A DNA stretch of 32,299 nucleotides, taken from a virus (lineage: Duplodnaviria; Caudoviricetes). The notes beneath the pieces were generated by a model. The model worked only from the letters and a program-made list of their open reading frames with translations, made no database searches and was not told the DNA's origin. A program made the translations under genes and the position numbers. This document shows positions 3,700 to 32,299 of the stretch, piece after piece. Location of the stretch: the IMG/VR virus record IMGVR_UViG_3300025530_000352, positions 1-32,299 of that record. One strand, written 5' to 3'. Each line of letters begins with the position of its first letter. Position 1 is the stretch's first letter.

Positions 3700-3886
3700 C
3701 CACGACGGTTGCCGCTACGAGGAAGAGATGACCCGCGAGGATTTCATGTCGCTGGAAGCAAGCCTCAACCGGTACGAGGGTGGAAGGATCATTTCTTCAG
3801 AGTGGGCGGGCAAGGAACTGTATGGAAAAACCGACGATGAGGAATATTGCAGTGGGAAGGAGTCTGCAACCGATGAGTGCGATTGA
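3653..3886 (+). CDS. hypothetical protein
   Basis: GAGGAGG SD; tiles with neighbours. Confidence 0.55.
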   Translation: MMEENATKKKVIWISDHDGCRYEEEMTREDFMSLEASLNRYEGGRIISSEWAGKELYGKTDDEEYCSGKESATDECD

Positions 3887-4121
3887 TCGGGAAAAGTTGC
3901 TGGAACTGATCAAATCCAGAAAAACAAAGCTTGCTGGAAGCTACAAGGATATTGAATATGGCGCTTACATGGAACTTGAAACAATAGAAGCGTATATTGA
4001 ATCTGGCGCGTTCGATGTGCGGGAGAAGGAGCCGCAAGACACATTCAGCCGAGCAATGCTATGGGAACTGGAAAAGATCGAGGAATATAAGCGAGCGAAG
4101 GAGGACGACGGGCATGAGTGA
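3873..4121 (+). CDS. hypothetical protein (MSAIDREKLLELI...)
   Basis: AAGGAG SD before ATG 3873; IDREKLL start is typical of small Bacillota phage proteins. Confidence 0.65.
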   Translation: MSAIDREKLLELIKSRKTKLAGSYKDIEYGAYMELETIEAYIESGAFDVREKEPQDTFSRAMLWELEKIEEYKRAKEDDGHE

Positions 4122-9201: not shown

Positions 9202-9523
9202 TCATATTGCTTACTCAGGCACTGTGCGGGAGTTCCAAAAACCCCCTGGATTCGGTGTTGAGGAGCCACCTGCCCCAACTTTGAGAGATTCGGCAGTAAG
9301 GGCGTATGAGATCAGTCAGGTGGTGAACACCCTTGCATCTCGAGTGTACGAGGATCTGTATTTGGGAATGGCAGCTGCATCTGAAAGTGCAGGAAAAGCG
9401 ACTCCAGATCCAGATCCAGATCCAGATCCAGGCACGCCGGTAGCAGATCTCGTTTCCGGAATCATTACCACGCTTGAACTTGCCGAGAAGACCTTGCGAG
9501 AAACTATTCAGAGATTGGAGTAG
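9194..9523 (+). CDS. hypothetical protein with a (PD)n linker
   Basis: ATG overlaps the end of the previous gene; fills gap to AAA gene. Confidence 0.6.
   Translation: MSSHIAYSGTVREFQKPPGFGVEEPPAPTLRDSAVRAYEISQVVNTLASRVYEDLYLGMAAASESAGKATPDPDPDPDPGTPVADLVSGIITTLELAEKTLRETIQRLE
9404..9431 (+). repeat. (CCAGAT)4+ tandem repeat encoding Pro-Asp
   Basis: ccagatccagatccagatccagatccag. Confidence 0.9.
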
Positions 9524-9530
9524 ATGTTGA

Positions 9531-10331
9531 ATGGCCGAGGTACAGAAGGTTCCGTATGTCACTGTTCCCGGAGGGCTTCCTGGTGAAGATCCTCGTGAGA
9601 AGTTCAGGTATTTGAATATGCTTGTGCACGCTCCTGGTGGTCGAGGAAAGACTTCGCTGGCTGCAACCGCGTGTAGGGATCCTAGAACTTCTCCGGTGCT
9701 GGTGCTCGACATGGAGGGTGGAGCTCCTTTGCGCTTCGTAAATGAGGATCCTTCGAAATATACTATCCGCAAGGTCCGGAGTATCGAGGATATCAACCAG
9801 ATCTACGAGTATCTTGCTGCTGGCAAGCATCCGTACAAGACTGTGGTCTTGGATTCTCTCACGGAGATCCAGAAGCTGGGGCTGTATGAGTTTGTATACG
9901 GCAGGCAGCCTGATAAATCCTTCAAGGGTAACATCATTGAAGTCAAGACCGCGGAGATTCAGCATTGGGGAAAGTCCGGCAGTCAGATGGGCATGATGTG
10001 CCGCTACTTCAGAGACCTCCCAATGCATGTAATCTTCACGACACTGACGCAGCGTCTGAAAGACGAGACTACTGGCAAGATCACTATTACAGTGGCACTG
10101 CCTGGCAAACAAGCTGACGAGATTCCCGGTATTCCTGATATCGTAGGATACATCGATGTCGTCCGGATCGGTCAAGAAGATGTGCGCGTACTTAAGGTAC
10201 AGCCTGACGGCAAGATCGAGGCGAAGGACCGTACGGATGCTCTCGGGGAAGGAATTCTCCTGCGCAAGGGAGAAAATCACATTTCCAAGATGCTGGATTT
10301 GATTTGGGAGCACCACGGAATTACAGAATGA
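9531..10331 (+). CDS. AAA_24 / Sak4-like phage ATPase
   Basis: PGGRGKT, LDMEGG, VVLDSLTE, AKDR; lies between nuclease and DUF669 genes. Confidence 0.85.
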   Translation: MAEVQKVPYVTVPGGLPGEDPREKFRYLNMLVHAPGGRGKTSLAATACRDPRTSPVLVLDMEGGAPLRFVNEDPSKYTIRKVRSIEDINQIYEYLAAGKHPYKTVVLDSLTEIQKLGLYEFVYGRQPDKSFKGNIIEVKTAEIQHWGKSGSQMGMMCRYFRDLPMHVIFTTLTQRLKDETTGKITITVALPGKQADEIPGIPDIVGYIDVVRIGQEDVRVLKVQPDGKIEAKDRTDALGEGILLRKGENHISKMLDLIWEHHGITE

Positions 10332-10348
10332 GCCCACATAAATTCACA

Positions 10349-10377
10349 TTGATTTTCTTTCGGAGATCACATATAAT
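10349..10377 (+). promoter_or_regulatory. sigmaA-type promoter (copy 4)
   Basis: TTGATT-N17-TATAAT. Confidence 0.8.
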
Positions 10378-11881: not shown

Positions 11882-14719
11882 ATGCGAATAGAGCGATTTC
11901 GCAGGTTCTACGAGATGTACTTGGGACCCCTACCGGAGGCCAACTCTTCAGGTGAAGTGCAGGTGCGAAGTTGCTTCCGACACGATCCGAATCCTTCAAT
12001 GTTCATCAATTTGGAGGATGGAAGGTACAACGATTTCGGAAGTGACTATAAGGGTGATGCGTACAACTTTTACATACACATGCATGATGCGTCGTTCACT
12101 GCAGCAAAGAAGGCGGTAGATGAAATCGTTGGGAGTCCTGAGGAAGGAAACATAAGGGTTCCAGTACCAATTGACGAGGATCTCGTTCTCCGATGGCACT
12201 CAAATCTAATGGCGAGCGACGATCTTCGAAAGTACATGAATGTCAACAGAGGCATCAGCAATGACATTCTCAAGAAGTTCAAGATTGGTTTCGATGGGCA
12301 GCGGTATACTATTCCAATCTATAACAAGTATGGAGTTTGCGTCAATGTCAGGAGATACTCTCCAGGGGCTTCTGGCGGAGACAAGATGATCAACTATGGC
12401 AAGGGCTATGGCAACGCAAGGCTCTTCCCGCTAGAGGCCCTTGAATCTAAGGTGGTGTTGCTTCAAGAGGGAGAGTTCGATACACTCATCCAGTGGAGCA
12501 AGGGCTTCAAGGCGATTACGAATACTTCCGGCGCAGCCACTTGGAAGCAAGAATGGACTGAACTGTTCAAGGGGAAGATAGTCTACATCTGTTACGATGC
12601 AGACAAGGCGGGTAAAGAAGGCGCAATCAAGGTTGCAAGTCAGTTGATTGGAGTTGCTGAGAGAGTCTGTATAATCGACTTGCCAGTCCCTCCAAACTCC
12701 GGAGAAGATGTTACTGACTATTACGTCAAGTACGATAAAACCGCAGAAGAATTTGCACACTTGATGTCAGAAGCGAAGCCTTTCCAGCTAGACGATGGTT
12801 CTGCTGATGCCCAGGCAAATACGGTAACCAGAACAACCCTTGTAGAAGCTCGTCACAGCAGATTCAAGCACAAGAAAGTACAATTCGATGTAATGGTGGT
12901 AGGTAAAGATACTGCACCATACAACATCCCATCCCAAATACTATTCAAGTGCTCCATGGTTGGAGTGAATGAGAAGATGTGCAGCGCGTGTCAAATCGCC
13001 CGTTGCGGAGGGGAGTTGGAGCTACAGATTCCTAAAGATCCGGACATGCTTGAGCTCATAAAGTCTTCCAAGCAGCAGCAGATGGGGTTGCTGAAGCGGA
13101 AGGCAGGCATCCCTCAGAACTGCTCTTTCTATCAAGCTGAGGACACGAAAAGTGTGAACATCGAAGAAGTCCTGTTGGCTCCAGAGATCCAGTCTTTCAG
13201 CGAGTGGTCTCCTGAGGGCGTGAAATACATCCTTCAGTCTGCTTTCATAGTAGATCATCCTTTGGATGCAAATCGGACCTATCGCGTAACTGGGATAATG
13301 ACTCCGGATCCGTGGCAACAGCACGTAACCTTCCTGCTAACAGACGGAGAGCCCTTGCAAGACACGGTATCGTCTTTTAGGATGACTCCGGAGCTGTACC
13401 AGCAGCTGAAGATCTTTCAGGTAACTGAGTCTGTGGAGAAGAAGTTCGAAGAGATTCATGAGGACTTCGAAGCAAACGTCACCCACATTGTTGGAAGAAG
13501 AGACTTACTTACCGGCATCGACTTGACCTATCACTCAGTACTGTCATTCTTCTTTCAGGAGGTGCCGATCCACAAAGGGTGGCTGGACTTCCTCTGTATA
13601 GGGGATACTCGTACTGGCAAGTCTGAGACCACGGAGAAGCTGCTACGGCACTATCAGCTGGGAGAAATCTCTGTAGCAGAGAACACCTCTTATGCAGGGC
13701 TTGTAGGTGGCCTGCAGCAGACAGGAGATCGTAGATGGTTCTTGACATGGGGCAAGCTTCCTCTGAACGATGGTCGGCTCTTCGTGATTGACGAAGTCTC
13801 CGGCATGTCAGTGGATGACATTGGGAAAATGTCCGGCATCAGATCGTCAGGTATTGCGGAATTGACTAAGATTCAGACCGAGAGAACAACTGCACGTACT
13901 CGATTGATTTGGCTCTCCAACCCTAGGAGCGGTCGTAATTTGAGTACGTACAGTTATGGCGTCTTAGCAGTACCTGAGCTTATCGGCAGAGCAGAGGACA
14001 TATCCCGATTCGACTTCGTCGTTGCAGCATCTCGGGATGAAGTTCCAATTGACCTTATCAACCAACGCAAGATTGGCGGCAAAGAAGTTCCGCACAGATT
14101 CACATCTGCCCTGTGCAGAGCACTCGCCCTGTGGGCTTGGTCTCGAAAGGCGGAAGATGTTGTATTTGAAGATTCCGCAACGGATGCCATCCTGCACTAT
14201 GCGATCAAAATGGGTCGGGAGTATTCATCTGCGATTCCATTGGTCGAAGGAGCTAACCAACGTATCAAGCTTGCCCGACTTGCTGTGGCTGCGGCTGCGA
14301 GAGTATTCAGCACAGACTCTACTGGAGAGAAAGTCATTGTAAAGAAGGAGCATGTCGACTTCGTCTATGCCTATCTCGAGCAGATCTACAGCAAGCCCTC
14401 TCTCGACTACAAGGGGTACTCTGAGCGAGAGCTCGCGGACATTCGTCTGGCGGAGAAGTACCGAGATGAGGTTACTAAGTATCTGGAAGCATTTCCGGAT
14501 ATCGCTGACTTGTTTGATCGTCAGGAGTATGTGTGGCCGAAGCATTTAGAAGAGCAGCTTGGTTGCGAGCGTGCCGCGGCGCAGGAACATATTGCATTCT
14601 TCACACGTACTAGAATGATCCAGGAGTCCAACAGCCGGGGATATAGGAAGTCTGCAGCATTCATTCAGATCTTGAGAGAGTGGAAGTTCAAGAGAAAAGT
14701 AGAGGAGGAGTTACATTGA
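11882..14719 (+). CDS. DnaG-type (TOPRIM) primase fused to MCM-family helicase
   Basis: CFRHDPNPS Zn-finger-like start; EGEFD and CYDAD TOPRIM motifs; Cys cluster; IGDTRTGKS, AGLVGG, NDGRLFVIDE, SNPRSGR, SRFD match MCM AAA+ motifs. Confidence 0.9.
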   Translation: MRIERFRRFYEMYLGPLPEANSSGEVQVRSCFRHDPNPSMFINLEDGRYNDFGSDYKGDAYNFYIHMHDASFTAAKKAVDEIVGSPEEGNIRVPVPIDEDLVLRWHSNLMASDDLRKYMNVNRGISNDILKKFKIGFDGQRYTIPIYNKYGVCVNVRRYSPGASGGDKMINYGKGYGNARLFPLEALESKVVLLQEGEFDTLIQWSKGFKAITNTSGAATWKQEWTELFKGKIVYICYDADKAGKEGAIKVASQLIGVAERVCIIDLPVPPNSGEDVTDYYVKYDKTAEEFAHLMSEAKPFQLDDGSADAQANTVTRTTLVEARHSRFKHKKVQFDVMVVGKDTAPYNIPSQILFKCSMVGVNEKMCSACQIARCGGELELQIPKDPDMLELIKSSKQQQMGLLKRKAGIPQNCSFYQAEDTKSVNIEEVLLAPEIQSFSEWSPEGVKYILQSAFIVDHPLDANRTYRVTGIMTPDPWQQHVTFLLTDGEPLQDTVSSFRMTPELYQQLKIFQVTESVEKKFEEIHEDFEANVTHIVGRRDLLTGIDLTYHSVLSFFFQEVPIHKGWLDFLCIGDTRTGKSETTEKLLRHYQLGEISVAENTSYAGLVGGLQQTGDRRWFLTWGKLPLNDGRLFVIDEVSGMSVDDIGKMSGIRSSGIAELTKIQTERTTARTRLIWLSNPRSGRNLSTYSYGVLAVPELIGRAEDISRFDFVVAASRDEVPIDLINQRKIGGKEVPHRFTSALCRALALWAWSRKAEDVVFEDSATDAILHYAIKMGREYSSAIPLVEGANQRIKLARLAVAAAARVFSTDSTGEKVIVKKEHVDFVYAYLEQIYSKPSLDYKGYSERELADIRLAEKYRDEVTKYLEAFPDIADLFDRQEYVWPKHLEEQLGCERAAAQEHIAFFTRTRMIQESNSRGYRKSAAFIQILREWKFKRKVEEELH

Positions 14720-15189
14720 TAGCAACACTGTGCAAATCGTTCACCTTTGATGCCGCCCATCAGCTGGTAGGTCACAAGGGCAAGTGCCAAAACCTTCACG
14801 GACATACTTACAAGCTGGAGGTGTTCATCACCGGAGAGGTTAATCGAGACTACGGGTCTTCAGACGAAGGCTTCGTAGTAGATTTCTCCGAAGTCAAGGA
14901 GATTGTCAAGCGGGAGATTGTCGACCCTATGGACCATGCGTTTCTGGTCTGTGGCAATGAGCCCGCACTCGACAAAGTGCTTACCAAGAAGTACTATCTG
15001 GGATTCCGATCGACCTGTGAGAACATGGCCGGATACATCTTGTACAAGCTCTCGCGTGTATGGCCGCCGCACTTGCCGCCGGTGACTAAGATCCGCTTGT
15101 GGGAGACTCCAACTGGATATGCGGAAGTGAGTCTCGAGGGTCACGACCTTGATCAGATTGTCAGAGAGATGGTAGGAGGTGCCGAATGA
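14716..15189 (+). CDS. queD: 6-carboxytetrahydropterin synthase
   Basis: FDAAH, CQNLHGHTY, VDF, DHAFL, TCEN, WETP; TTG start after GAGGAGG. Confidence 0.93.
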   Translation: MIATLCKSFTFDAAHQLVGHKGKCQNLHGHTYKLEVFITGEVNRDYGSSDEGFVVDFSEVKEIVKREIVDPMDHAFLVCGNEPALDKVLTKKYYLGFRSTCENMAGYILYKLSRVWPPHLPPVTKIRLWETPTGYAEVSLEGHDLDQIVREMVGGAE

Positions 15190-15935
15190 GTGCGAAGATT
15201 CCAGTCCTAGAAATCTTTGGACCTACAATTCAGGGAGAAGGCGCTGTCATTGGAAAGAAGACGGTGTTCGTTAGAACTGCGGGATGTGACTATTCCTGCG
15301 CGTGGTGTGATTCGAAGTTTACTTGGGATGGCTCTGCGAAGCATCAAATTCGAATGTTGTCCCCGGAGGAGGTCTGTCAAGAGATCTTCTCTCTTGCAGG
15401 AGATAGCTTCAATCATGTGACTATCTCTGGCGGCAATCCTGCCCTGATAGGTCCCCAGATGCGAGAGCTTCTTATTAGGTTGCATAATCGTGGAGTGAAG
15501 GTAGGTCTGGAGACTCAGGGAAGCCGTTGGCAAGATTGGTTCCTGCTGGTGGATGACCTCACGATCAGTCCGAAGCCGCCTAGCAGTGGCATGCGAACTG
15601 ACTGGGGCATCTTGCGATACATTGTGGAGAAGCTTGCCGGCTACTGCGACATGGCTGAAGAGGCCTACAACTTCAATCTCAAGGTAGTAGTGTTCGACCG
15701 AGATGACTATGAGTTCGCGAAACAAGTGCATCGGGAATTTCCGGAGGTTCCTATGTTCTTGTCCGCAGGCAATTCTGATGTAACTCCAAATGCCTCCAAA
15801 GCGGAGCTTCGGGATTCCATTCTGACAAAGCTTGATTGGCTTGCGTCGAAGGTCATGAACGATCCAGCAATGAATGAAGTTAGAGTATTGCCGCAGCTGC
15901 ATGTGCTTCTGTGGGGTAATCAGAGAGGAGTATGA
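15186..15935 (+). CDS. queE: 7-carboxy-7-deazaguanine synthase (radical SAM)
   Basis: [34 protein letters not shown]. Confidence 0.96.
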
Positions 15936-15939
15936 GGAT

Positions 15940-16560
15940 ATGAAATTGACGCAGATTCAATATAACGCGATAACTTCCGCAATAGGGAGCACGCCACAGC
16001 TTGAAGAGCTCGAGAGCGTTCTTAAGGGGATTCAATCGTTGATCCAGCTCTGTGGAGACGATCCTGACAGAGATGGCTTACAAGACACGCCCTACAGAGT
16101 GTTGAAAGCTTTCCTAGAGTACACTTCGGGGCTTAGGGGTGATCCGAAGGAGCATCTGCAGAAGACTTTTGACGTGCAACATCAGGAGCTGGTGCTCGTG
16201 AAGGACATCGAATTCTACTCGATGTGCGAGCACCACTTTGCACCATTCTTCGGGGTGGCCCATGTTGGATACATTCCGGAAGCGCGCATCACTGGCTTGT
16301 CCAAGATCGCACGAATGGTGGAAGGATATGCCCGCAGGTTCCAAGTGCAGGAGAGGCTGACTGGTCAGATTGCGCAAGCAATGGAAGAAGTGCTTCAGCC
16401 GAAGGGTGTAATGGTGGTCGTAGAAGCAAAGCACATGTGCATGTGCTCTCGGGGAATTCAGAAGAGTGGGGCCTCTACTACTACCTCCTCTGTTCGAGGA
16501 GTGTTTCTCAGAGAAGCGGATGCTCGTGCGGAGTTTCTCTCACTGATTTCGAAGGGGTGA
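15940..16560 (+). CDS. folE: GTP cyclohydrolase I
   Basis: [32 protein letters not shown]. Confidence 0.96.
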
Positions 16561-16566
16561 TCTTCT

Positions 16567-16929
16567 GTGGATAAAGCGTTGATGGCAATGCTCTCTAGTA
16601 GAGCACGCTGGATCAATGAAGCCACTGACACAGTGATCGAAGAGCTGCTGTCCGGCGTGCTTGGGTATCGAGACTTTCAGAGACTGTTGGGGCTGCCTGC
16701 AAGATTGCACAGGCAGTTCCTGCACTCTGCAGGAGTTGACCTTTACATTGTCCCCTATGAGACTTCGCGACTGATCGTGCTCAGGACGATCGATAACGAA
16801 TTCTTGAGAGCACGTGTGGTCAAGTATGACCCAATATTCGATCGCGTGGAAGTCGAGGGACTTTCAGAAAAGAGGTTCAGGGAATTGATGGAGCATCTGA
16901 AGAGACACTTTTCATCTTCGCTGCACTGA
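16567..16929 (+). CDS. hypothetical protein inside the deazaguanine cluster
   Basis: GAAGGGG SD-like, GTG; fills gap between folE and next promoter. Confidence 0.6.
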   Translation: MDKALMAMLSSRARWINEATDTVIEELLSGVLGYRDFQRLLGLPARLHRQFLHSAGVDLYIVPYETSRLIVLRTIDNEFLRARVVKYDPIFDRVEVEGLSEKRFRELMEHLKRHFSSSLH

Positions 16930-16937
16930 AATTGCCC

Positions 16938-16966
16938 TTGAAATTTTCCTGAAAATATCGTATAAT
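16938..16966 (+). promoter_or_regulatory. sigmaA-type promoter (copy 6)
   Basis: TTGAAA-N17-TATAAT. Confidence 0.8.
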
Positions 16967-16977
16967 TAAATTAGGAG

Positions 16978-17325
16978 GTGAGTTCAGTGATCGTTAAACT
17001 TGTGAGAAGCCCAGAAGAAAGAGAAGCGCTTGAGAAGGTATTTAATGCATATGTCGAAGAGGCTCTTGCACGTGCGCAGGCATTGCGCGAAGAACGCGGC
17101 AAGGGCTATAACTCGACAGTCTCAATCGTGGACTACTTCCCTCACGGAGAGCAAGACCTTACATACGAGCTGTTCAAGAAGCTGGTGCGTACAGAGAGTG
17201 TCATTGCTGCGGAGAAGGAAGGGCTTGAAATCGATGGCAGTGTAGAGGACAGCATTCTTGATGCAATCAACTACAGCGCATTTCTCTATGCGTACTACAA
17301 GATGCGAAAGGAGGGCTTCAATTGA
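16978..17325 (+). CDS. nucleotide-modification-associated (Nmad1/DUF1599-like, MazG-type all-alpha) protein
   Basis: RGKGYN...KKLVR...SVEDSILDAINYSAF; start may be GTG 16987. Confidence 0.6.
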   Translation: MSSVIVKLVRSPEEREALEKVFNAYVEEALARAQALREERGKGYNSTVSIVDYFPHGEQDLTYELFKKLVRTESVIAAEKEGLEIDGSVEDSILDAINYSAFLYAYYKMRKEGFN

Positions 17326-18083
17326 AAGTTGCAGTAATTGCGCCAACCAAGCTTCTGGATAAGTTTGCTGCGAGATCGAATTATCACTTGGTACTTGCTC
17401 ACCAGTACATGCAGGATGCGGCGTACCGTAACTTCTACAAGCGAATGGTGGCCCGCGGAGATTTCGTTATTCTGGATAACAGTGCTTACGAGCTCAAGCG
17501 TTCGGTGGACGTGTCTGTGCTGAGAGAATGTGCAGAGGACTTGCATCCAACCGCAATGTTTCTGCCTGATGCCAGATTTGACACTAGCGAAACCTTGAGA
17601 CTGGTCGCGGAAGCCATTCCGCAGCTGCAGGGGTTGAACGTGAAACTGCTTGCAGTTCCTCAAGGGAGGAATCTTAGCGAAGTTCTTGCATGCTACAATA
17701 TTCTGAAGGCACATCCTGACATTCATGGATTTGGCTTGTACGAAGAAATTGGTGAAGTCTGTGGCTTCAAGGATCGTGTGGAGTTCCTGAGATTCTTGGA
17801 CTCCGAAGGTCTCTTGGACTACACCAAGTACTATCACCTGTTGGGAATGGAAGAAGATGTCACCAAGGTCCGGGAGCTCTGCAAGTTCCCTTGGGTGAGT
17901 GGCATCGATAGTGCCAAGCCTGTGGTGTATGGGCTCCACGACATCAAGTTCAGCGAGGTAGAAGTACTTCCAGAATATCCTCATCGGCCAGAAGGGTACT
18001 TCGAGATTGAGAAAACTCCTTACGAATCTGCGGTGATTCACAATATCGATACTCTCAAAAAATGGGCCCAGAATTACGCGTAA
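17322..18083 (+). CDS. divergent TGT/DpdA-like guanine transglycosylase
   Basis: TGT-barrel motifs in order: ILDNSAYE, FLPD, AVPQG, YHLLG, GIDS; located in the que cluster. Confidence 0.7.
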   Translation: MKVAVIAPTKLLDKFAARSNYHLVLAHQYMQDAAYRNFYKRMVARGDFVILDNSAYELKRSVDVSVLRECAEDLHPTAMFLPDARFDTSETLRLVAEAIPQLQGLNVKLLAVPQGRNLSEVLACYNILKAHPDIHGFGLYEEIGEVCGFKDRVEFLRFLDSEGLLDYTKYYHLLGMEEDVTKVRELCKFPWVSGIDSAKPVVYGLHDIKFSEVEVLPEYPHRPEGYFEIEKTPYESAVIHNIDTLKKWAQNYA

Positions 18084-18168
18084 GAAATATATTGCCGAAA
18101 AATTTTCTCCGGGGATTTATAAGGAAAATTTCCGGAGATTTTTCGGAGAATGAAAGGAGTTAATAAAT

Positions 18169-19611
18169 ATGTGCAGTATATCAGGAGCAATGTTCCCTTT
18201 GCTCATGGATCCGCTACAGAGTGCCCGCTACGAAGATATGCTCCGCGACGTCATCTGCGTAGCAGAGGAGCGCGGAAGAGATAGCTGGGGGTGTGCTTTG
18301 ATATCGTTGGTTCCGTCCCAAACGAAGATCATTCGCAAGATCGGTCGTCCGAGCCACACCCTTCGGGAAGTCGAATTCTATGTTCCTATGATGTCAATGG
18401 CCATCAACAATAATCGCGCGGAACCTACTACGGAATATGTTTCGAGCAAGCTTCCGAAAGACATACAGCCGTTCACCTGCGGGGGGTGGATCGTTGCACA
18501 CAATGGAACGATTGCCAACGACAAGGAACTGATCGAGAAGTATGGTCTGAAGGTTGAAACTTCCATTGACAGTGCTGTCATCCCTGCACTCCTAGCTCAC
18601 TTTTTCAGCGACCCTGCAGAAATTAACTTCCACGAGATCGTCGAGGTACTCTCCCGAGAGCTCGTAGGATCCTACGCTCTCGCGATTGCTCATACCAATT
18701 GTCCTAACGACCTCATCCTTATGGTGAACTACAAGCCTCTGTATGTGGCATGCAATTCCGAGAAGAACTTCTTGCTTTTCTCGAGTCTCGATAAGTACTT
18801 GGAGGCGCCCGGCTTGGATCTTCAATTTGCTAGCGACTTGCGAGTGAAGCCGCTCAAGCCGTACTCGGCACTGCACGTAACTCGTCACACCTCCGGAAGG
18901 CTCTGCTTTGATGAAATCAGCTTGCCAAGGAAGCGTCCGGATTCTCAGAGAGCGTTGGTAGTTTGCTCCGGAGGACTTGATTCCACAGTAGTTGCAGCAG
19001 ATGCACTTCGTCGCGGGTACGAAGTAACTCTGCTCCACTTCCAATACAGTGCACGTGCAGAGGTGAAAGAAGTTGAAGCTGTCAGAAACATTGCCGATCG
19101 ACTTGGGTGTGACTATCTCATCGTGGGAACAGATATCTTCAAAACTGTCATTGGAGGATCTCGTCTCACTAACACACGCGATGAGATCAGTGAAGGAGTT
19201 GCTGGTGCGGAATTTGCTCATGAGTGGGTCCCAGCCAGAAACCTCATTATGCTTGCAGTGGCAACTGGAATCGCTGAATCCAAGGGTTATGGAGTTATCA
19301 TGCTCGGTAATAACCTCGAAGAATCCGGTGCCTACCCCGACAATGAGATGGAATTCATCCGAAAGTTTTCCGAAGTTCTTCCCTACGCCACACAAGTGGA
19401 CAAGCACGTACGTGTGGAAATGCCTGTAGGACATCTCATGAAGCATGAGATTGTCAAGAAGGGCGTTGAGCTTGGCGCTCCACTGGACCTGACTTGGTCG
19501 TGCTACGAGGCAGGAGATCTGCATTGTGGGCAGTGCGGTCCGTGCTTTATGCGCAAGACGGCCTTCAAGATCAACAATATTCCTGAAGTGATCCAGTTCT
19601 TGAATGAGTGA
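18169..19611 (+). CDS. gat-queC: Gat-QueC fusion (class II glutamine amidotransferase + 7-cyano-7-deazaguanine synthase)
   Basis: N-terminal Cys2, HNGTIAN, IDS; SGGLDST, VPARN, YPDN, TWSCY, CGQCGPC. Confidence 0.92.
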   Translation: MCSISGAMFPLLMDPLQSARYEDMLRDVICVAEERGRDSWGCALISLVPSQTKIIRKIGRPSHTLREVEFYVPMMSMAINNNRAEPTTEYVSSKLPKDIQPFTCGGWIVAHNGTIANDKELIEKYGLKVETSIDSAVIPALLAHFFSDPAEINFHEIVEVLSRELVGSYALAIAHTNCPNDLILMVNYKPLYVACNSEKNFLLFSSLDKYLEAPGLDLQFASDLRVKPLKPYSALHVTRHTSGRLCFDEISLPRKRPDSQRALVVCSGGLDSTVVAADALRRGYEVTLLHFQYSARAEVKEVEAVRNIADRLGCDYLIVGTDIFKTVIGGSRLTNTRDEISEGVAGAEFAHEWVPARNLIMLAVATGIAESKGYGVIMLGNNLEESGAYPDNEMEFIRKFSEVLPYATQVDKHVRVEMPVGHLMKHEIVKKGVELGAPLDLTWSCYEAGDLHCGQCGPCFMRKTAFKINNIPEVIQFLNE

Positions 19612-22345: not shown

Positions 22346-22382
22346 TAGAATATACTGTTTTCTTTGAAAGGAGGTGAAGACC

Positions 22383-22745
22383 ATGAGATTTTGGCTAGAG
22401 GTACCTTGCCGCGAGCTTTCAGACCCTAGACTCCTAGACGAGCATCGTAGCGTACATGCGTATTTCGGTGGAATGATGAGGGCCCCTAAGAAATGGGCGA
22501 AACATCCTCTGATCGGTCCAATGGATCCATCTGTAATGCACCTAAGGCATGCCGAGCAAGTCGCTGAAATGCTTTCAAGAGGTTTCAAACATTCCACTCC
22601 TCTTGACCTTAGCGATGTAAACCACATCTCAACATGGCGAAACGCTAACGGCCTAGGAACTATTGGAATGTATCTAAATGCAGAAGGCAGCCCGATCCTA
22701 CATGAGAAGATGCGAGAGCTGCAACTAGAATACCTTGTACGTTAA
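22383..22745 (+). CDS. pyrimidine-dimer DNA glycosylase / endonuclease V-like protein
   Basis: MRFW..P..LSDPRLLDEHRSVH, HP, RHAEQVAEMLSRGFKH. Confidence 0.7.
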   Translation: MRFWLEVPCRELSDPRLLDEHRSVHAYFGGMMRAPKKWAKHPLIGPMDPSVMHLRHAEQVAEMLSRGFKHSTPLDLSDVNHISTWRNANGLGTIGMYLNAEGSPILHEKMRELQLEYLVR

Positions 22746-24446: not shown

Positions 24447-24713
24447 ATGACCAAGAAAGCAACCGGCATTGTGCGCAAGGTAGACGAGCTTGATAGGATA
24501 GTCCTGCCGAAAGAGCTGCGTCGTGTATACGGCATCAACCCTAACGACTCGGTCGAGATCTTTGTCACAGGCGAGGAGATCATCCTGCGCAAGTATGTAC
24601 AGCCTACGGGATGTACATTTTGCGGTACGGTCGCGGATCACTATGCAGATATGGGAGACCACAGGATCTGCCCAGGTTGTGCGGAGTTGATCATGGAGAG
24701 GCTGCAGTCATGA
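24447..24713 (+). CDS. abrB: AbrB-family transition-state regulator with C-terminal Zn ribbon
   Basis: KATGIVRKVDELDRIVLPKELRR...IILRKY; CTFC...CPGC. Confidence 0.9.
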   Translation: MTKKATGIVRKVDELDRIVLPKELRRVYGINPNDSVEIFVTGEEIILRKYVQPTGCTFCGTVADHYADMGDHRICPGCAELIMERLQS

Positions 24714-25059
24714 TCAACGGTACAATCTGATTTTGAGAGTAATTATCGCGAAATATTCAAATTTCCCGGGAAAAGCTGCCTTATTTTCCCGGGAATATTT
24801 TTGGGGCTTTAGAATTTATCCGCTGAAATCTTGGCCCGATAATTGCAGGAGACCTCACAGAGGGAGGCATAAAAATTCAGATGAATTAACATTGATTCCC
24901 GCAAATATAACGTTGAAATCCTCCTTTATAAAAGAGGGAAATATTTCTTCAACAGAATTATATTGAAATTCGGTCCCCTATCGGAAATCAACAAAATACT
25001 TGCGGGAAGCTCAAACTATTGCTCTCTATGAATACAACAAAAGATTTATATAGTGCTCA

Positions 25060-25088
25060 TTGATTTACCAGCAGGGGTATCATATAAT
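25060..25088 (+). promoter_or_regulatory. sigmaA-type promoter (copy 8)
   Basis: TTGATT-N17-TATAAT. Confidence 0.8.
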
Positions 25089-25135
25089 TTAACTAACAGG
25101 CAAAACATTTCGCTTTCTAAAAGGAGGTGATAAAA

Positions 25136-25804
25136 ATGCAGAAGCGCTTCGAAGATCTCACTCCTGAAGAGCAGTACATACAGAGTAAAGAGTCACCCGA
25201 ACTTTATCAGGAGTTCTTCCGAATTCATCAAAGGCTTGCGTGGTTCATAGTGCACGAAGTAATTCGCCCGGAGGCTGCTAAGCTTCTAGATCGCGGGGCG
25301 TCTATGGATGACTACTTGCAAATTGCGATGCTAGGGATGTTGAAAGCCTATCAGACTTTCAATCCTGAAAGATCGAAATGGGCTACTTGGGCTTCAGTCT
25401 GCATTCGAAACGAGCTTTACATGACTCTTCGCCGTCGAATGAAGTACGTCAAGCGAAACATCATCTTCGAATCCTTCGACGACATAGTGTTTGACCGCTC
25501 TGGCGGAAGAGGAGACGAAGCAATTACCTTGGAGCAGACAATAGGAGAAGAGGACCTTCGAATGAAACTGCTCGAGAACGTGGAATTCTTCTGGGCTGTA
25601 GTAGAAAGGCTCAAACGTCATCTCAACGCCACCGAACTCAAAGTATTCGAGAAGGTGCTCGAATGCCGTCAAGGAGTAACGCAGGTCACTCTCGCTCGAG
25701 ATCTTGGGATCAGCCAATCATACATCAGCCGGGTACTTAGGCGCATCTACTTCCAGGCAGAAGAAATTCGCAAGCAGCTCCTAGCAGACAAACTTACCTC
25801 TTGA
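25136..25804 (+). CDS. sigma-70 family factor, sporulation sigmaE/sigmaK-like
   Basis: LKAYQTFNPERSKWATWASVCIRNELYMTLRR (region 2); TQ..LARDLGISQSYISR (region 4). Confidence 0.88.
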   Translation: MQKRFEDLTPEEQYIQSKESPELYQEFFRIHQRLAWFIVHEVIRPEAAKLLDRGASMDDYLQIAMLGMLKAYQTFNPERSKWATWASVCIRNELYMTLRRRMKYVKRNIIFESFDDIVFDRSGGRGDEAITLEQTIGEEDLRMKLLENVEFFWAVVERLKRHLNATELKVFEKVLECRQGVTQVTLARDLGISQSYISRVLRRIYFQAEEIRKQLLADKLTS

Positions 25805-25829
25805 TTTCTTCAGGATTTTCACGTATAAT
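25801..25829 (+). promoter_or_regulatory. sigmaA-type promoter (copy 9)
   Basis: TTGATT-N17-TATAAT overlapping the sigma stop codon. Confidence 0.8.
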
Positions 25830-25849
25830 TAATATAGGAGGTGATACTA

Positions 25850-26308
25850 ATGAAAAGCGAAAGCGAGATCGTAGCAACCTTTACGGAAGCAGGAATTGCA
25901 GCATTCTCACGTGCAATCCTGAATGCAGTCAAGGTCGGAATCAAGATTGCCCAAGAGGTGCAAGTTGTCCCGAAGGAGGACATCGACAGTTCCGAAGTAG
26001 ATCGGATCGTGCACGCATATTACAAGAAGCGTTCTGAGTCCGCGGAAGCAGAAGCTTCCCCCGACGCTGCTACGGCAGAGGCTCCAAAGCTTGACACCGT
26101 AGTTCTTCAGGGACTCTTGGAAGACTTGCTTAAGAACAATCCAATGAAAGTTTCCGAAGTGTTGAAGGCCTTGCACGCAGAGGGATTTGACTGTACATAT
26201 CAACAGCTCTACTATTCGCTGGAGAAGTTGGTAAGTGCAGGAACAGTCCAGAAGCTTTCTGACAAACGATATGTAAACACATCCGACTCTTTGAAAGAAG
26301 CTCTTTAG
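25850..26308 (+). CDS. protein with C-terminal winged-helix domain
   Basis: TAGGAGG SD; PMKVSEVLKAL...QLYYSLEKLVSAGTVQKLSDKRY. Confidence 0.7.
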   Translation: MKSESEIVATFTEAGIAAFSRAILNAVKVGIKIAQEVQVVPKEDIDSSEVDRIVHAYYKKRSESAEAEASPDAATAEAPKLDTVVLQGLLEDLLKNNPMKVSEVLKALHAEGFDCTYQQLYYSLEKLVSAGTVQKLSDKRYVNTSDSLKEAL

Positions 26309-26318
26309 AGAAGGGAGG

Positions 26319-26552
26319 TTGAGTAAATTGAATCCTGAAACATTCCATCTATTTGAGCAAGTCCTTGCAAATACACGCAAGTACTTCGTATGCGAGTACT
26401 ATGCAGGCACCCGTGAAATGATCTTTAGATACGTGTGTAAGCAACTTGGGGATGTTCCTCCAGCAATGGTGTCCGCAGCGCTGAGAGTACTCCGCGACAG
26501 CAATGCAATCATATACGACAAGAAGGTTTGGTGGTTCTTGGCCGACAGATAA
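26319..26552 (+). CDS. hypothetical protein, possible winged helix
   Basis: AAGGGAGG SD; TREMIFRYV...VSAALRVLRDSNAIIYDKKVWW. Confidence 0.55.
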   Translation: MSKLNPETFHLFEQVLANTRKYFVCEYYAGTREMIFRYVCKQLGDVPPAMVSAALRVLRDSNAIIYDKKVWWFLADR

Positions 26553-26586
26553 TCCGACCCTAGAGTGCATCTATGGAGAACGGACC

Positions 26587-26615
26587 TAGGAGACCTTCGG
26601 GTCTCCTACCTTCTT
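26587..26615 (+). terminator. hairpin / probable terminator
   Basis: TAGGAGACC-TTCG-GGTCTCCTA; weak T tail. Confidence 0.65.
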
Positions 26616-26634
26616 GAAAGGAGGTGATTATTCT

Positions 26635-26856
26635 TTGGGAAGCAGTCGCCCAAAGTTTGTGATGGACATTTCTGTAGAGAAAGTAGACATGAGTTCTTGG
26701 ACCGTGTATCGGAGAAGACAGACCTGCAAGTGCAAGAGAGTTTGCAATGACGCAGTTCGGTTCATTGGTATCGAAGATCGGATAGTGGTGTGCCGGAACA
26801 GAGCTGCAGAGCTTCTAGGAGAACTGTCTAGCATACTTAAGGACGGTGAAAGCTGA
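26635..26856 (+). CDS. hypothetical Cys-containing protein
   Basis: GAAAGGAGG SD, TTG; CKCKRVC...VVC. Confidence 0.6.
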   Translation: MGSSRPKFVMDISVEKVDMSSWTVYRRRQTCKCKRVCNDAVRFIGIEDRIVVCRNRAAELLGELSSILKDGES

Positions 26857-27008
26857 TGACGCGCCCACGTAGCTACCGAAGAGTACTCTGCGAGAAGTGT
26901 CGCAAGAAGTACTCGTACTATCACTTTCCGAAGCACTCATGCAAGCCCCGGACGGAGAGAAAGAGGCCAGCTGATCTCAATAGATCTGGAGGTAAGAAAA
27001 ATGGATAG
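26856..27008 (+). CDS. 50-aa basic protein with C2HC zinc-finger-like motif (not in ORF track)
   Basis: TGATG coupling; CEKCRKKYSYYHFPKHSC. Confidence 0.55.
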   Translation: MTRPRSYRRVLCEKCRKKYSYYHFPKHSCKPRTERKRPADLNRSGGKKNG

Positions 27009-27321
27009 GCAATCAACCCTCTACTACCAGAAAGTAATTCTCCCGCGTTGCATCAAGATCGGACAGTACATAGTTTCCCAGCGGGCAACTCTCAGAGCAA
27101 CAGCTCTCGCATTCGGAGTATCGAAGTCAACTGTGCATCAAGCAATCGGTGTACTCAAGCATATTGAACCGTCCCTACATCAACAAGCACTTGCGGTGAT
27201 TCAGTACAACAAGTCGGTAAGACATCTTCGCGGTGGGGAAGGCACGCGGAAGAGGTATGAGCAGATTCGTCAAGCGCGGCAATTGGAGCAAATACTAAAA
27301 TCTCCGCGAATATACGGGTAA
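27001..27321 (+). CDS. spoIIID: SpoIIID-like sporulation transcription regulator
   Basis: RCIKIGQYIV...TLRATALAFGVSKSTVH...YNKSVRHLRGGEGTRKRY. Confidence 0.92.
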   Translation: MDRQSTLYYQKVILPRCIKIGQYIVSQRATLRATALAFGVSKSTVHQAIGVLKHIEPSLHQQALAVIQYNKSVRHLRGGEGTRKRYEQIRQARQLEQILKSPRIYG

Positions 27322-27333
27322 ATTCCCCGTAAT

Positions 27334-27369
27334 AAAAATCAGGGAGTCCCTTTAGGACTCCCTTTGTTC
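27334..27369. terminator. bidirectional terminator between convergent spoIIID and SASP genes
   Basis: AAAAATC-AGGGAGTCC-CTTTA-GGACTCCCT-TTGTT. Confidence 0.75.
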
Positions 27370-27377
27370 GGGCCCAA

Positions 27378-27719
27378 TTATTGTAATTGGTTCTCTTGTC
27401 CGTTAAACGGCATCGGAGGGCTAGATTCTGCAAAGTGAGGTGCTGTGCCTTCGCCTTCTTCCTGTAGCAGTACATTGTGTCCTTGAGCTGCCATCTTCTC
27501 TGCAAACTGCAACATTCGCTTCACCATCTCTCCACCAACTGCTCCGCAGTAGTAGGAAGGAACCATTCTCCAATCGTACTTGCCCTTGTTGTTCTTGGGA
27601 ACCTTCACTCCGATGGAGTTAGCTACTTGATACTTGATCGCATCCAGAGCATCTCTCGCTTCGGGAATCTCAATCTGGTTCTGAGTACCCGTCGTAGTGC
27701 TGTTGATTTTGTCGTCCAT
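27378..27719 (-). CDS. alpha/beta-type small acid-soluble spore protein with C-terminal extension
   Basis: PEARDALDAIKYQVANSIGV...SYYCGAVGGEMVKRMLQFAE; AGGAGG SD before ATG 27719. Confidence 0.9.
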   Translation of the reverse strand: MDDKINSTTTGTQNQIEIPEARDALDAIKYQVANSIGVKVPKNNKGKYDWRMVPSYYCGAVGGEMVKRMLQFAEKMAAQGHNVLLQEEGEGTAPHFAESSPPMPFNGQENQLQ

Positions 27720-27808
27720 AAAATCTCCTCCTGAGATCATAGTGGCTACCTTTGGATGATCTTTCGATCATCACTAGTATTATTATATATGATCCCAGGA
27801 GGAAATAT

Positions 27809-28162: not shown

Positions 28163-28191
28163 ATTATATGATGCACCTAGAGGGATTTCAA
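28163..28191 (-). promoter_or_regulatory. sigmaA-type promoter (copy 10)
   Basis: Minus strand TTGAAA-N17-TATAAT. Confidence 0.8.
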
Positions 28192-28935: not shown

Positions 28936-29115
28936 CTAGAGCGGCTTGATTATGGTGTGGTTGTTTTGCTTCGTGAGGCACAATTTGCATCGAACTTTTC
29001 CATTCGGCAGTTTTTCCCAATGATGTCCATGAGTTCGACAGAGTTTCCGTAACCTGCGAGTTCCTAGCGCATACCCCAGCGCTGCAATGACGAGTGTGTA
29101 CAGCAAGAAGCCCAT
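28936..29115 (-). CDS. 59-aa protein, N-terminal TM helix plus C..GH.W...C..C motif (DUF1660-like; not in ORF track)
   Basis: MGFLLYTLVIAALGYALG...CRTHGHHW...CKLC; GAGGTGA SD. Confidence 0.65.
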   Translation of the reverse strand: MGFLLYTLVIAALGYALGTRRLRKLCRTHGHHWEKLPNGKVRCKLCLTKQNNHTIIKPL

Positions 29116-29252
29116 TTCCGATCACCTCTTTTCGCTGGAACTAGGTTGCCTCTGCAGGGAGGACACCTGCCATCTGGAGCATCTCTTCCCCGAGTGAATT
29201 TGCATCCTGGAAGTGAGAGCCGCGGAAATCCGCCGCAAACGAGTCCTCCCAA
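29064..29252 (-). CDS. possible small Cys-rich protein
   Basis: GGGAGG SD before TTG; C...C...CPPCRGNL; alternative frames exist. Confidence 0.35.
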   Translation of the reverse strand: MGGLVCGGFPRLSLPGCKFTRGRDAPDGRCPPCRGNLVPAKRGDRKWASCCTHSSLQRWGMR

Positions 29253-29347
29253 TACATCCACCTCCCTCAGGTTCTCTGTTCAACACTCAATGGTTTTGAG
29301 TGCTGAATCGAGAACCCGAATGCAAGTAGCATCCGAGTTCTGCAAGG

Positions 29348-29756
29348 TTACTCGTCTTCCTCTTCTTCTATCGGAAGGACCTGCACACTGCCGCAGCGAA
29401 GACACTCCCTGTAGAAGCAATAGTCGAGCGCTGCTCCAACTACAAACGCGGTGTTGTTTCAACTTCTCGTGTCACACTTTCTGCTTGCCAGAGCTCTCTG
29501 TAGGCGGTAGAACCACAGTTGGCACATCTGTGAGGCATTGGGGTGCTCATCACCGGTAGCGATTGCTTTGTCACGGCGGTTGCAAGCACATCAATCAGTT
29601 TGGGCAACCCCACCTCGGCAGGCTCTCCTTTTAGATAGGTTTTCACCTCGGTGAGTTCGAGACCGTCACTATCTTTATTCCGGTAGTGGGTTCTCGAAGA
29701 ACCCACTTACCCTCTCTGTACCGGAACCCCAGCTTTTCAAGATCCCACAACATCAT
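29348..29756 (-). pseudogene. probable frameshifted Zn-ribbon gene
   Basis: CANCGST and CLRCGS halves lie in adjacent frames; strong SD at 29756 opens only a 37-aa ORF. Confidence 0.45.
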
Positions 29757-30261: not shown

Positions 30262-30322
30262 TTGTTCTTCCTCCTTAGAATTTTAATTGGTAGGCGCATT
30301 TCCGAAAGCGCAGCCAACAGCC

Positions 30323-30583
30323 TTATCTTAGCTTAGTTACATCATAGGCTTCTACAGGCTTGTAGTAGCTAGGCAATGGCAACAGCATCAACTCGCTGTG
30401 GCCAACGCCTCTCGCATAGGTAACTGCCTTGATCATGTCCTGCAGAACAGTCGCTGCATCGCTGCAGTCTGTCAGCGGATTAATTTCACCGCCGCTGCTC
30501 TTGACCTGCTCAAGCGCATACAGCAACACATCCTCCAAGTAGTCACTTCTCAACGTTACTTTAACTGTTTGCATACTGCTCAC
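30323..30583 (-). CDS. hypothetical protein
   Basis: GAGGAG SD; start may be ATG 30574. Confidence 0.65.
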   Translation of the reverse strand: MSSMQTVKVTLRSDYLEDVLLYALEQVKSSGGEINPLTDCSDAATVLQDMIKAVTYARGVGHSELMLLPLPSYYKPVEAYDVTKLR

Positions 30584-30737
30584 TCCTCATCTCTTCCGTA
30601 AGGCGTTTTATACCTTGCCGTGTAGGTAGTGTTACTACTTCTGTGACGTAGCATACACCCTTAAGGTATGTGCTTCCGCATTCCAGGCGCATAAGCTGTT
30701 GTGACATGCGATGCGGTGCGGTGTTCCTCTTGTTGTA

Positions 30738-31133: not shown

Positions 31134-31171
31134 AGGAAGAGAAGAGAGCGGTTAAGCCCTCTTCTTTTCCT
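31134..31171 (-). other. 16-bp hairpin over a stop codon
   Basis: AGGAAAAGAAGAGGGC-TTAACC-GCTCTCTTCTCTTCCT on the minus strand. Confidence 0.5.
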
Positions 31172-31526
31172 GTGCAACTTGAGCTTGCGTAGCACGTGCA
31201 GCCAGCTGAGCATTGTGAAGCTCGAGTACCATCCGCATGACGCAGTCGTTCGCTTCGTATGTGCGGTACACACGTTCGTTCGACTGTTTCGTTTTCACGT
31301 GAGTGACGACTACCTTATAGGTTTTCGCCTCGGAATTCCCTGTAGCAGTCACTGCATAAACGTCAGCGTCGATTGTGAGTGTGTACTCTGTAGCGTCCCA
31401 TTTCTTGTTAGCGATAGTTCCCTTCACATGAACCTCCAGCGGGAGATGCTCCCACTTCTTCCTTTGTCCCGGTGTGAGACCTAGGAGATAGCCTCCGTCG
31501 TGCTTGCGCATTTTCATGTCTGCCAT
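31152..31526 (-). CDS. hypothetical protein, first gene of leftward operon
   Basis: AAAGGAGG SD before ATG 31526. Confidence 0.75.
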   Translation of the reverse strand: MADMKMRKHDGGYLLGLTPGQRKKWEHLPLEVHVKGTIANKKWDATEYTLTIDADVYAVTATGNSEAKTYKVVVTHVKTKQSNERVYRTYEANDCVMRMVLELHNAQLAARATQAQVAQEKKRA

Positions 31527-31552
31527 TGCTTTTGCCTCCTTTGTTTTAATTG

Positions 31553-31810
31553 GATTCACTGGGATAAGTAGGTAGAAATCCTGAAAACTCCTGAGAACAA
31601 GGTGTGAGTTTAGAAAAGCAGTCCTTTCCCAGTGTGACAGTCGGATACCTCCTCGAGGTTCGGCTCGCTTTTTCCCTTTGTTTTAAGGGTTTGCAAGTGA
31701 CCTCACAGAGTTCCCACTGTTAACACAGAACGCACTGCCTCAAACTTCCCTTGTCAAAGAGCCTCAGACTCCTCAGACACTCCAGTGAATCAGTTGTTGT
31801 GCCTGATGAT
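31553..31810 (-). ncRNA. candidate structured RNA / long rod-shaped 5' leader
   Basis: Nested complementary segments from GATTCACTGG/CCAGTGAATC inward to CCCTT/AAGGG; starts just after promoter copy 11. Confidence 0.6.
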
Positions 31811-31813
31811 TAT

Positions 31814-31842
31814 ATTATATGATACCCATAGAGGGTAATCAA
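31814..31842 (-). promoter_or_regulatory. sigmaA-type promoter (copy 11)
   Basis: Minus strand TTGATT-N17-TATAAT. Confidence 0.8.
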
Positions 31843-31869: not shown

Positions 31870-32299
31870 TCCAAATTTGGGCCATAAACCCTTTCTATCT
31901 GCACTTCTTTGGGAAATCCCGCACGCACACTGGCATTTTTGGGCCTCGGCCGCTACAGGGTCACTCCGCCTCGCGTTTTGCTCCCATTTTTGGTTCAGGC
32001 AAATTTGGGCACCCCCCATTTTTGGGCCTAGCAAATTTGGGCGACCCTCGCGCATCTCCCCAGGGACTCGTTTTAGACCCCAAATTGTGGCTGGCAAATT
32101 CGGGACTCACTCCGCTCGCCGTTTTAGACCCCAAATTCGGGGGCCGGGTGGGAAACAACCTCTCCCAAAAGTGGGGCAAATTCGCGAAAAGAAAAAGAGA
32201 GCGTAGAAATATCGGACTCCACATCTTCGTGTAACTCTCAACCTCGTTTTAGACCTCAAAAATGGATGCAGGGGTCCGAAAAATGGGAGCCCCTCTCCC
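31870..32299. repeat. non-coding repeat-rich region, possible genome end / packaging region
   Basis: CAAATTTGGGC x3, CATTTTTGG x3, CGTTTTAGACCYCAAA x3 and other A/T tracts flanked by C and G runs. Confidence 0.7.

Follow-up and report, generated by a model that had tools for sequence, protein, structure and literature searches.

Why would a phage place a long self-complementary RNA between a promoter and the first gene of an operon? The question arises near one end of the window, by which we mean the whole 32,299-nt stretch of DNA analysed here: one entire contig, held as a virus record and estimated to be about 41% complete. The contig carries genes for SASP, SpoIIID, an AbrB-like protein and a sigma factor, a QueD/QueE/FolE/Gat-QueC block, PolA and a primase-helicase. 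The first four suggest that the host is an endospore-forming member of the Bacillota, and PolA is about 30% identical to that of the closest cultured phages. The gene nusB is absent from the contig and was found in the B. subtilis control. The right-hand 4.4 kb form a minus-strand block of small orphan genes, with the repeat near its promoter-proximal end (Table 1).

Table 1. Coordinates of the features at the rod locus and in its surroundings
Feature	Position	Strand	Remarks
Array of short imperfect palindromes	31871..32187		upstream of promoter; copy number varies among strains
-35 hexamer of sigma-A-type promoter	31837..31842	-	10/12 consensus matches, 17-nt spacer
Extended -10 motif common to the phage's promoters	31811..31823	-	-10 box ends at 31814
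Transcript 5' end, short and mostly unpaired (predicted)	31792..31807	-	
Imperfect inverted repeat, 239 nt	31553..31791	-	predicted unbranched rod, 89 pairs; 5' arm 31791-31685, 3' arm 31678-31553
boxA-like element GCTCTTTGACAA	31751..31762	-	about +46 from predicted start
Apical hairpin and loop	31675..31686	-	exact 12-nt copy of 31538-31549, before the Shine-Dalgarno site
Variable patch of 3' arm	31612..31624	-	the two known variants differ at 5 positions, all of them here
Anti-boxA strand	31584..31602	-	forms the boxA helix, with a 1x3 loop of 31756 against 31593-31595
Segment like Bacillus 16S-trailer anti-boxA	31578..31589	-	by eye; second copy of the short repeat permitting the slipped register
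Shine-Dalgarno site AGGAGG	31535..31540	-	12 nt past the rod, 8 nt before ATG at 31526
First operon gene, 124-aa orphan protein	31152..31526	-	beta sheet plus long helix, pLDDT 88
First predicted minus-strand intrinsic terminator downstream	27341..27363	-	closes the 4.4-kb block of small genes

The original prediction described an unbranched rod of about 240 nt on the minus-strand transcript, built from twelve nested helices, and this description agrees well with what we found. All 12 helices are present in order within the repeat, 10 of them in the minimum-energy fold and 2 in a slipped register, and the predicted fold is a single unbranched rod. Its arms of 107 and 126 nt align with 80 Watson-Crick columns, at an arm-to-arm score of 97 compared with 49 +/- 7 for shuffled sequences (maximum 69 in 500 shuffles). 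The minus strand folds at -97.4 kcal/mol with a z-score of -4.59, none of 200 shuffles being equally stable, while the plus strand of the same region reaches a z-score of -2.45, with 4 of 200 shuffles as stable. Among 986 windows taken along the contig, the rod window has the most unbranched pairs (75 pairs, -86.3); the second-best has 74 pairs at -69.1, so that the rod is unique on pair count and energy together, not on count alone. The rod is irregular: its longest perfect helix is 10 bp, one-sided bulges are many, and in the predicted fold the largest internal loops are 4x3, 2x4 and 3x5 and the longest weakly paired run is 6 nt. It is nevertheless predicted to remain folded at 55 and 65 C. 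In the slipped register, which involves the second and third helices from the base, the energy is -92.0 instead of -97.4, a cost of 5.4 kcal/mol; seven bases of boxA then bulge out and the rod is otherwise closed. The 12-nt apical sequence has just its two copies in the window, even with up to 2 mismatches allowed.

In one respect the fold says less than had been claimed. The many G-U pairs had been taken as a sign of selection at the RNA level, but G-U pairs alone are no proof of it, because their excess lies within what composition predicts (11-12 G-U columns against 4 A-C columns, a share of 0.75, where arm composition gives 0.63 +/- 0.08) and because DNA folding parameters likewise favour the minus strand (-40.9 versus -29.8).

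The earlier impression of an RNA without a sequence match was confirmed: an Rfam 15 scan of the rod, at the gathering score and at a looser E<=10, returned no family, and among the classes without an Rfam match were retron ncRNA, self-cleaving ribozymes, SRP RNA and pRNA. No reverse transcriptase was seen among the 52 ORFs scanned of this genome, of which about 41% is at hand. A blastn search of the rod against phage and plasmid collections gave short chance matches only, and there is no second copy of the rod in the window. Pattern scans of viral contigs yielded no match to the middle stems and 1 match to the outer stem, which has a branched fold and was judged to be chance. When 25,730 windows were prefiltered for inverted repeats regardless of strand, the rod was not among the best 40, so this filter is insensitive to such a structure. 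The rod's sequence family thus appears to be undescribed in Rfam 15 and absent from the phage and plasmid collections searched. Motifs of the hammerhead core, CsrA, ANTAR and CRISPR repeats were dropped after a check by eye.

Where the rod lies says more about its nature. Transcription is predicted, from the promoter elements, to start near 31807, and the rod begins about 16 nt past this start, leaving 12 nt between its end and AGGAGG. From the promoter to 27363 the prediction has no minus-strand terminator, and none that read-through would have to overcome was found in the operon. Because it sits between promoter and Shine-Dalgarno site and no terminator follows it, the rod reads as a 5' leader and not as the stand-alone RNA gene that had been proposed. 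The promoter was rightly placed directly upstream of the rod in the original prediction, although it need not be terminal: the contig simply ends at 32299, and at a second locus (L074) the DNA runs on past the palindrome array into another minus-strand ORF. The extended -10 motif has 7 matches in the window compared with 0.38 expected, and it recurs in two related phage genomes (G002 and G005); the other promoters of this type in the three genomes normally have a Shine-Dalgarno site within about 10-35 nt. The single RNA run (X4) gives a contig over 29410-30012 and none on the rod, which is uninformative either way.

The first gene of the operon encodes a 124-aa protein with four homologues at 40-52% identity (P0122-P0125). 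A family search assigned it to none, a protein atlas gave no named match, and fold searches produced no clear match (best Z 6.5, rmsd 3.5 over 99 residues), though membership of a family is conceivable.

What had gone unnoticed in the original prediction is a boxA-like element in the 5' arm, which is the window's only match to a boxA consensus at one mismatch or fewer. We scored the window with a matrix built from 17 rRNA leader and spacer sites at 9 loci (E. coli rrnB and eight Bacillota rRNA loci), the training sites being extracted by our own pattern, and with a second matrix from the 15 Bacillota sites only. The element ranks first of 64,576 positions with the 17-site matrix (expected 3.6e-4 per 240 nt on one strand) and again first, if weakly, with the Bacillota-only matrix (2.5e-3 in 240 nt, one strand), odds that should be cut about tenfold since the test was post hoc, after several other motif types had been eyed. 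Under the Bacillota-only matrix it scores 13.8, lower than any of the 15 training sites and ahead of the next-best position by 0.6; the whole window would be expected to hold 0.67 sites of this score. The element is identical at 11 of 12 positions to the leader site of Niallia and likewise to that of E. coli; at position 10 it has the E. coli-like base, absent from the 15 Bacillota sites. It has one mismatch to the published gamma-proteobacterial consensus as given in PMC5725501, and at that position the Bacillota sites share the phage's base.

The boxA element is promoter-proximal, untranslated and on the strand predicted to be transcribed, where the longest open frame across it has 30 codons. 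Folding snapshots at 60 and 100 nt catch it in weak local hairpins, it is more than 90% paired in the predicted final ensemble, and 210 nt of predicted structured RNA separate it from the Shine-Dalgarno site. As to boxB, a transient predicted hairpin overlaps boxA, and as to boxC, a GU-rich stretch follows it, seen by eye only; both elements are described as dispensable in E. coli (PMC6614797). In the titles and abstract openings that we covered, with subscription papers outside this scope, there was no boxA-bearing leader of a Bacillota phage, and the same literature offered no demonstration of boxA/NusB function in Bacillota.

The pairing partner of boxA points to a parallel with rRNA operons. 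In 7 of 7 Bacillota operons that were duplex-folded (the Pusillibacter locus and E. coli were left out), the leader boxA and the 16S trailer form a long helix that is interrupted by a small gap at its middle. The boxA helix of the rod, 17+7 bp with a 1x3 loop, lies at the place matching these stalks; its energy of -26.0 is weaker than the -32.3 to -37.0 of the real ones. Site III-2 of B. subtilis RNase III lies 65 nt after a cut that is itself 2 nt past the 16S end, as given in PMC4838370, and when counted on the B. subtilis trailer (67 nt from the 16S 3' end) it falls opposite the middle of boxA, within a base. By analogy, the region of the 1x3 loop in the phage rod is the predicted RNase III cut region. 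The predicted helices here, 8+9+7 bp split by 0x2 and 1x3 loops, add up to about two turns with small bulges, as in phage leaders processed by RNase III.

We hypothesize that the rod imitates, in miniature, the leader-trailer stalk of rRNA: it would load NusB-S10 and serve as a substrate of RNase III, as the lambda N leader does, a reading to which we give slightly less than an even chance. The rRNA transcription and cutting machinery is likely borrowed for an early message, because a copy of boxA lies in a hairpin placed between promoter and gene. A host-type sigma-A promoter would drive the leader, and boxA would bring NusB-S10 to the elongating polymerase while the roughly 150 nt ahead of the anti-boxA strand are being transcribed. 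Both arms would zip into the rod after Nus loading, and RNase III would then cleave across boxA, at the 1x3 loop. The new 5' end of the early mRNA would stay base-paired within the basal stem, some 55 nt upstream of the Shine-Dalgarno site. RNase III relieves translational repression in the lambda N leader, and in the phage the release of the Nus complex may similarly make the first gene translatable. The original suggestion of an RNase III substrate is carried into this reading, as a predicted role. Weighing against the reading are the lack of compensatory changes between the two variants, the early hairpins that trap boxA, a boxA helix weaker than that of real stalks, the modest Bacillota-only score, an operon in which no terminator calling for read-through was found, and the lack of the rod in related phages where these were checked.

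Elements of this scheme have been proposed elsewhere. For E. coli rRNA it is proposed that boxA-bound Nus factors tether the 5' RNA to the polymerase and hand it over to the partner strand made later, so that the RNase III helix forms (PMC8632103, PMC10250234, PMC6614797). In lambda, about 200 nt of structured RNA extend from nutL to N, whose translation is repressed when Nus factors bind (PMC5725501). RNase III sites are also known in early mRNA of the Bacillus phage SP82, as cited in PMC4838370. If our reading is true, the early mRNA of a phage infecting spore-forming Bacillota passes through the host rRNA pathway by means of RNA alone, with a copy of the arrangement, specific to Bacillota, that puts boxA and the RNase III site at one place; the rod would also be a compact 240-nt substrate for the role of boxA/NusB in Bacillota and for the order of Nus loading and cutting.

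Other readings make do without Nus loading or without RNA altogether. The rod could be a plain leader of the T7 or SP82 type, processed by RNase III or stabilising the 5' end with no Nus factor loaded, the boxA match being chance or merely an RNase III-friendly sequence. Its promoter-to-gene position and rod fold agree with this, as does the burial of boxA, partly hidden early and almost fully paired in the end; classic B. subtilis RNase III targets are described as stable stem-loops with small bulges (PMC4838370). We regard a plain leader as rather unlikely, though readily conceivable, in view of a boxA that ranks first in the window and lies at +46, where loading would occur. A DNA-level element, for which we see a still smaller chance, could be a cruciform serving as an origin or in packaging, a decayed inverted duplication, or else a small insertion bounded by 10-bp terminal inverted repeats, the RNA fold being a by-product. 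The rod adjoins the array of short palindromes, its flanks are near-direct 5-nt repeats, 2 of the 5 variant changes break RNA pairs, the G-U excess stays within what composition gives, DNA parameters show a like strand bias, and 5 of 24 distant primase loci have a long imperfect inverted repeat upstream of the primase, where the window has none. Those primase-side repeats, however, are more perfect and fold about equally on both strands, unlike the rod, whose one-sided bulges and short perfect helices would make a poor cruciform. Moreover, the two ends of the rod agree with the signals for transcription and translation, boxA is read in the direction of transcription, and the repeat is single in the window, its sole match elsewhere being a chance one.

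The remaining alternatives give the RNA another task. The rod or a cut piece of it might accumulate and act in trans as a sponge that soaks up NusB-S10 or RNase III, and so dampen rRNA synthesis in the host or control based on dsRNA. The near-consensus promoter and the predicted stability up to 65 C would suit this, and protein binding could pay the cost of the slipped register that exposes seven boxA bases; we nevertheless consider it distinctly unlikely, since there is no 3' end signal, the open register is rare without protein and the rod is not conserved. Equally a long shot, and a little more so, is a two-state RNA copying the pre-rRNA stalk, whose lower stem would shift register along tandem short repeats, so that boxA bulges from a rod that is closed and stable to heat: the rod bound by NusB-S10 would resist cutting and titrate the host rRNA transcription complex, while the unbound rod would zip, be cut by RNase III and allow the first early gene to be translated. 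The 6S-like polymerase decoy raised at the outset is very improbable. An irregular-armed rod of near 200 nt resembles the outline of 6S RNA (RF00013; B. subtilis 6S-1/6S-2), but the phage rod is without the central bubble described as the family-defining feature (PMC8876501), matches no 6S model at E<=10, is followed by no terminator, although processing might create a 3' end, and runs into a gene. A switch or thermometer acting on translation of the first gene, the switch being another early suggestion, finds some footing in the exact 12-nt repeat shared by the apical loop and the ribosome-binding region. We hold it to be hardly probable: the Shine-Dalgarno site lies outside a rod that stays folded at 55 and 65 C, and at 55-65 C most of the site itself is unpaired; alternative folds that would compete are not populated, and lone 3'-arm fragments pair weakly near the Shine-Dalgarno site.

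The miniature-stalk reading can be set against the systems it resembles. As in the Bacillota rrn stalk with its sites III-1/III-2, boxA comes shortly past a sigma-A promoter, later lies in a long helix with a central gap, and stands at the RNase III cut position. Unlike in that stalk, the phage arms enclose a 150-nt continuation of the rod and not rRNA, a protein gene follows, and the helix is weaker, G-U rich and has a 1x3 loop, with an E. coli-like base at boxA position 10. T7 R0.3 is an RNase III site of a phage early mRNA. The hairpins of T7 R1.1 (PMC8708148) and SP82 (PMC4838370) are likewise described as irregular, placed before an early gene and transcribed by the host polymerase; compared with the 49 nt of R1.1 (PMC8708148), the rod is about five times longer and holds a boxA, and the contig has one such leader. 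The lambda N leader (pL with nutL boxA/boxB) shares the early promoter, a boxA about 200 nt before the ribosome-binding site of the first gene and structured RNA between them (PMC5725501). It differs in that boxA lies upstream of the structure and not inside a helix; in the phage, whose host is presumably one of the Bacillota, no boxB/N-like partner was identified and the first gene is predicted to encode a folded protein of beta/alpha type. The general design of boxA, long hairpin and first gene is known from lambda, so the surprise is moderate; the distinctive point is a boxA zipped inside a single rod at the Bacillota RNase III position.

Copies of the rod were found as near-identical sequences only, one identical (L156) and one with 5 differences (L074, also in a contig of run X3). 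These differences fall within 13 nt, which has a P of 1.5e-5 under uniform placement; the clustering may reflect recombination or local selection. Two changes keep a pair, two break one, one is in a bulge and none is in the boxA helix, and there are 0 two-sided (compensatory) changes, a count from two distinct sequences only. The variant also folds as a rod (z-score -3.43), 7.4 kcal/mol weaker. All five changes are transitions, compared with about 1% divergence around them. Two further readings were rejected: an alternative small hairpin over the variable patch is populated at less than 3%, and in an open frame running from the 3' arm into the first gene, 4 of the 5 changes would be non-synonymous (counted by hand).

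Wider searches gave no further rod. In G002 (59% primase identity, 54% complete) and the complete G003, none of 2,260 windows matches the rod in pairs and energy. Locus searches led by the first gene, its alignment or the sigma factor gave none that was confirmed; those led by the primase gave 23 viral and 3 genome loci, and blastn of the rod region against 10 primase-locus records found promoters or short chance words only. A scan with the promoter pattern found 2 loci in viral contigs and, in 35 of 64 parts of the metagenome contigs, at least 130 loci with at least 132 matches, of which 126 were folded and 6 were too short; only the identical and the five-difference copies have more than 62 unbranched pairs. 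Across 166 family-type promoter matches, this boxA at +50 occurs only in the window and both locus copies, and in one X2 contig an ordinary short leader stands behind an identical -10 core. When viral contigs (10 of 64 parts) were scanned for a promoter plus boxA, at least 120 loci came up, and the 114 that were folded contain no second single rod enclosing boxA; the enrichment of real promoters among them is weak, with a perfect -35 in 2/114 compared with 0 and 0 in the controls and a non-coding association at P 0.07. On present data, the rod appears to be lineage-specific.

Several of the loci recovered are of interest in their own right. In six viral contigs (L246, L203, L229, L199, L266 and L304), a -10 box is followed by boxA 50-66 nt downstream in a non-coding leader; the 300-nt leader of L246 is strongly folded (z-score -7.1), and L266 has two promoter-boxA units in tandem. 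The primase-side imperfect inverted repeats, found upstream of the primase-helicase in L004, L008 (about 7600-7900), L010 (about 9470-9640), L021 and L026 (about 3760-3990), are 130-300 nt long and follow an ssDNA-binding gene, with z-scores of -3.6 to -8.6, from 25 shuffles of best-picked windows, that are about equal on both strands. Two further loci with shorter stems pass z<-3, and such a repeat is absent at this place in the window, L002, L003 and L013. These repeats are candidate replication origins.

The promoter motif itself, with a fixed 4-nt extension ahead of the -10 box that is kept in G002 and G005, occurs in the window at 691, 4941, 8022 and 25079 on the plus strand and at 28172 and 31823 on the minus strand, with similar sites near 10370 and 11280; it may be read with a phage factor or a phage sigma. 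The palindrome array upstream of the rod promoter, which also holds direct repeats, has a 98-nt skip (32088-32187) in runs X2 and X3, and a similar word stands ahead of the last promoter of G002; it is possibly a protein-binding array.

Elsewhere in the window, the region 24447-27740 has the sporulation regulators carried by the phage (AbrB-like, sigma factor, SpoIIID and SASP), and 14680-19611 the QueD, QueE, FolE and Gat-QueC genes of a 7-deazaguanine DNA-modification pathway, beside which a 253-aa ORF (17322-18083) could encode a DNA transglycosylase. An ORF at 22374-22745 resembles pyrimidine dimer DNA glycosylase (PF03013). The contig's most stable 260-nt folds, at -101 to -106 kcal/mol, are branched, G+C rich and located at 29115-29439 on the minus strand. 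The gene at 30308-30591 is also present on a 12.5-kb contig of run X2, in another context and with its own promoter, and is a mobile early-gene module.
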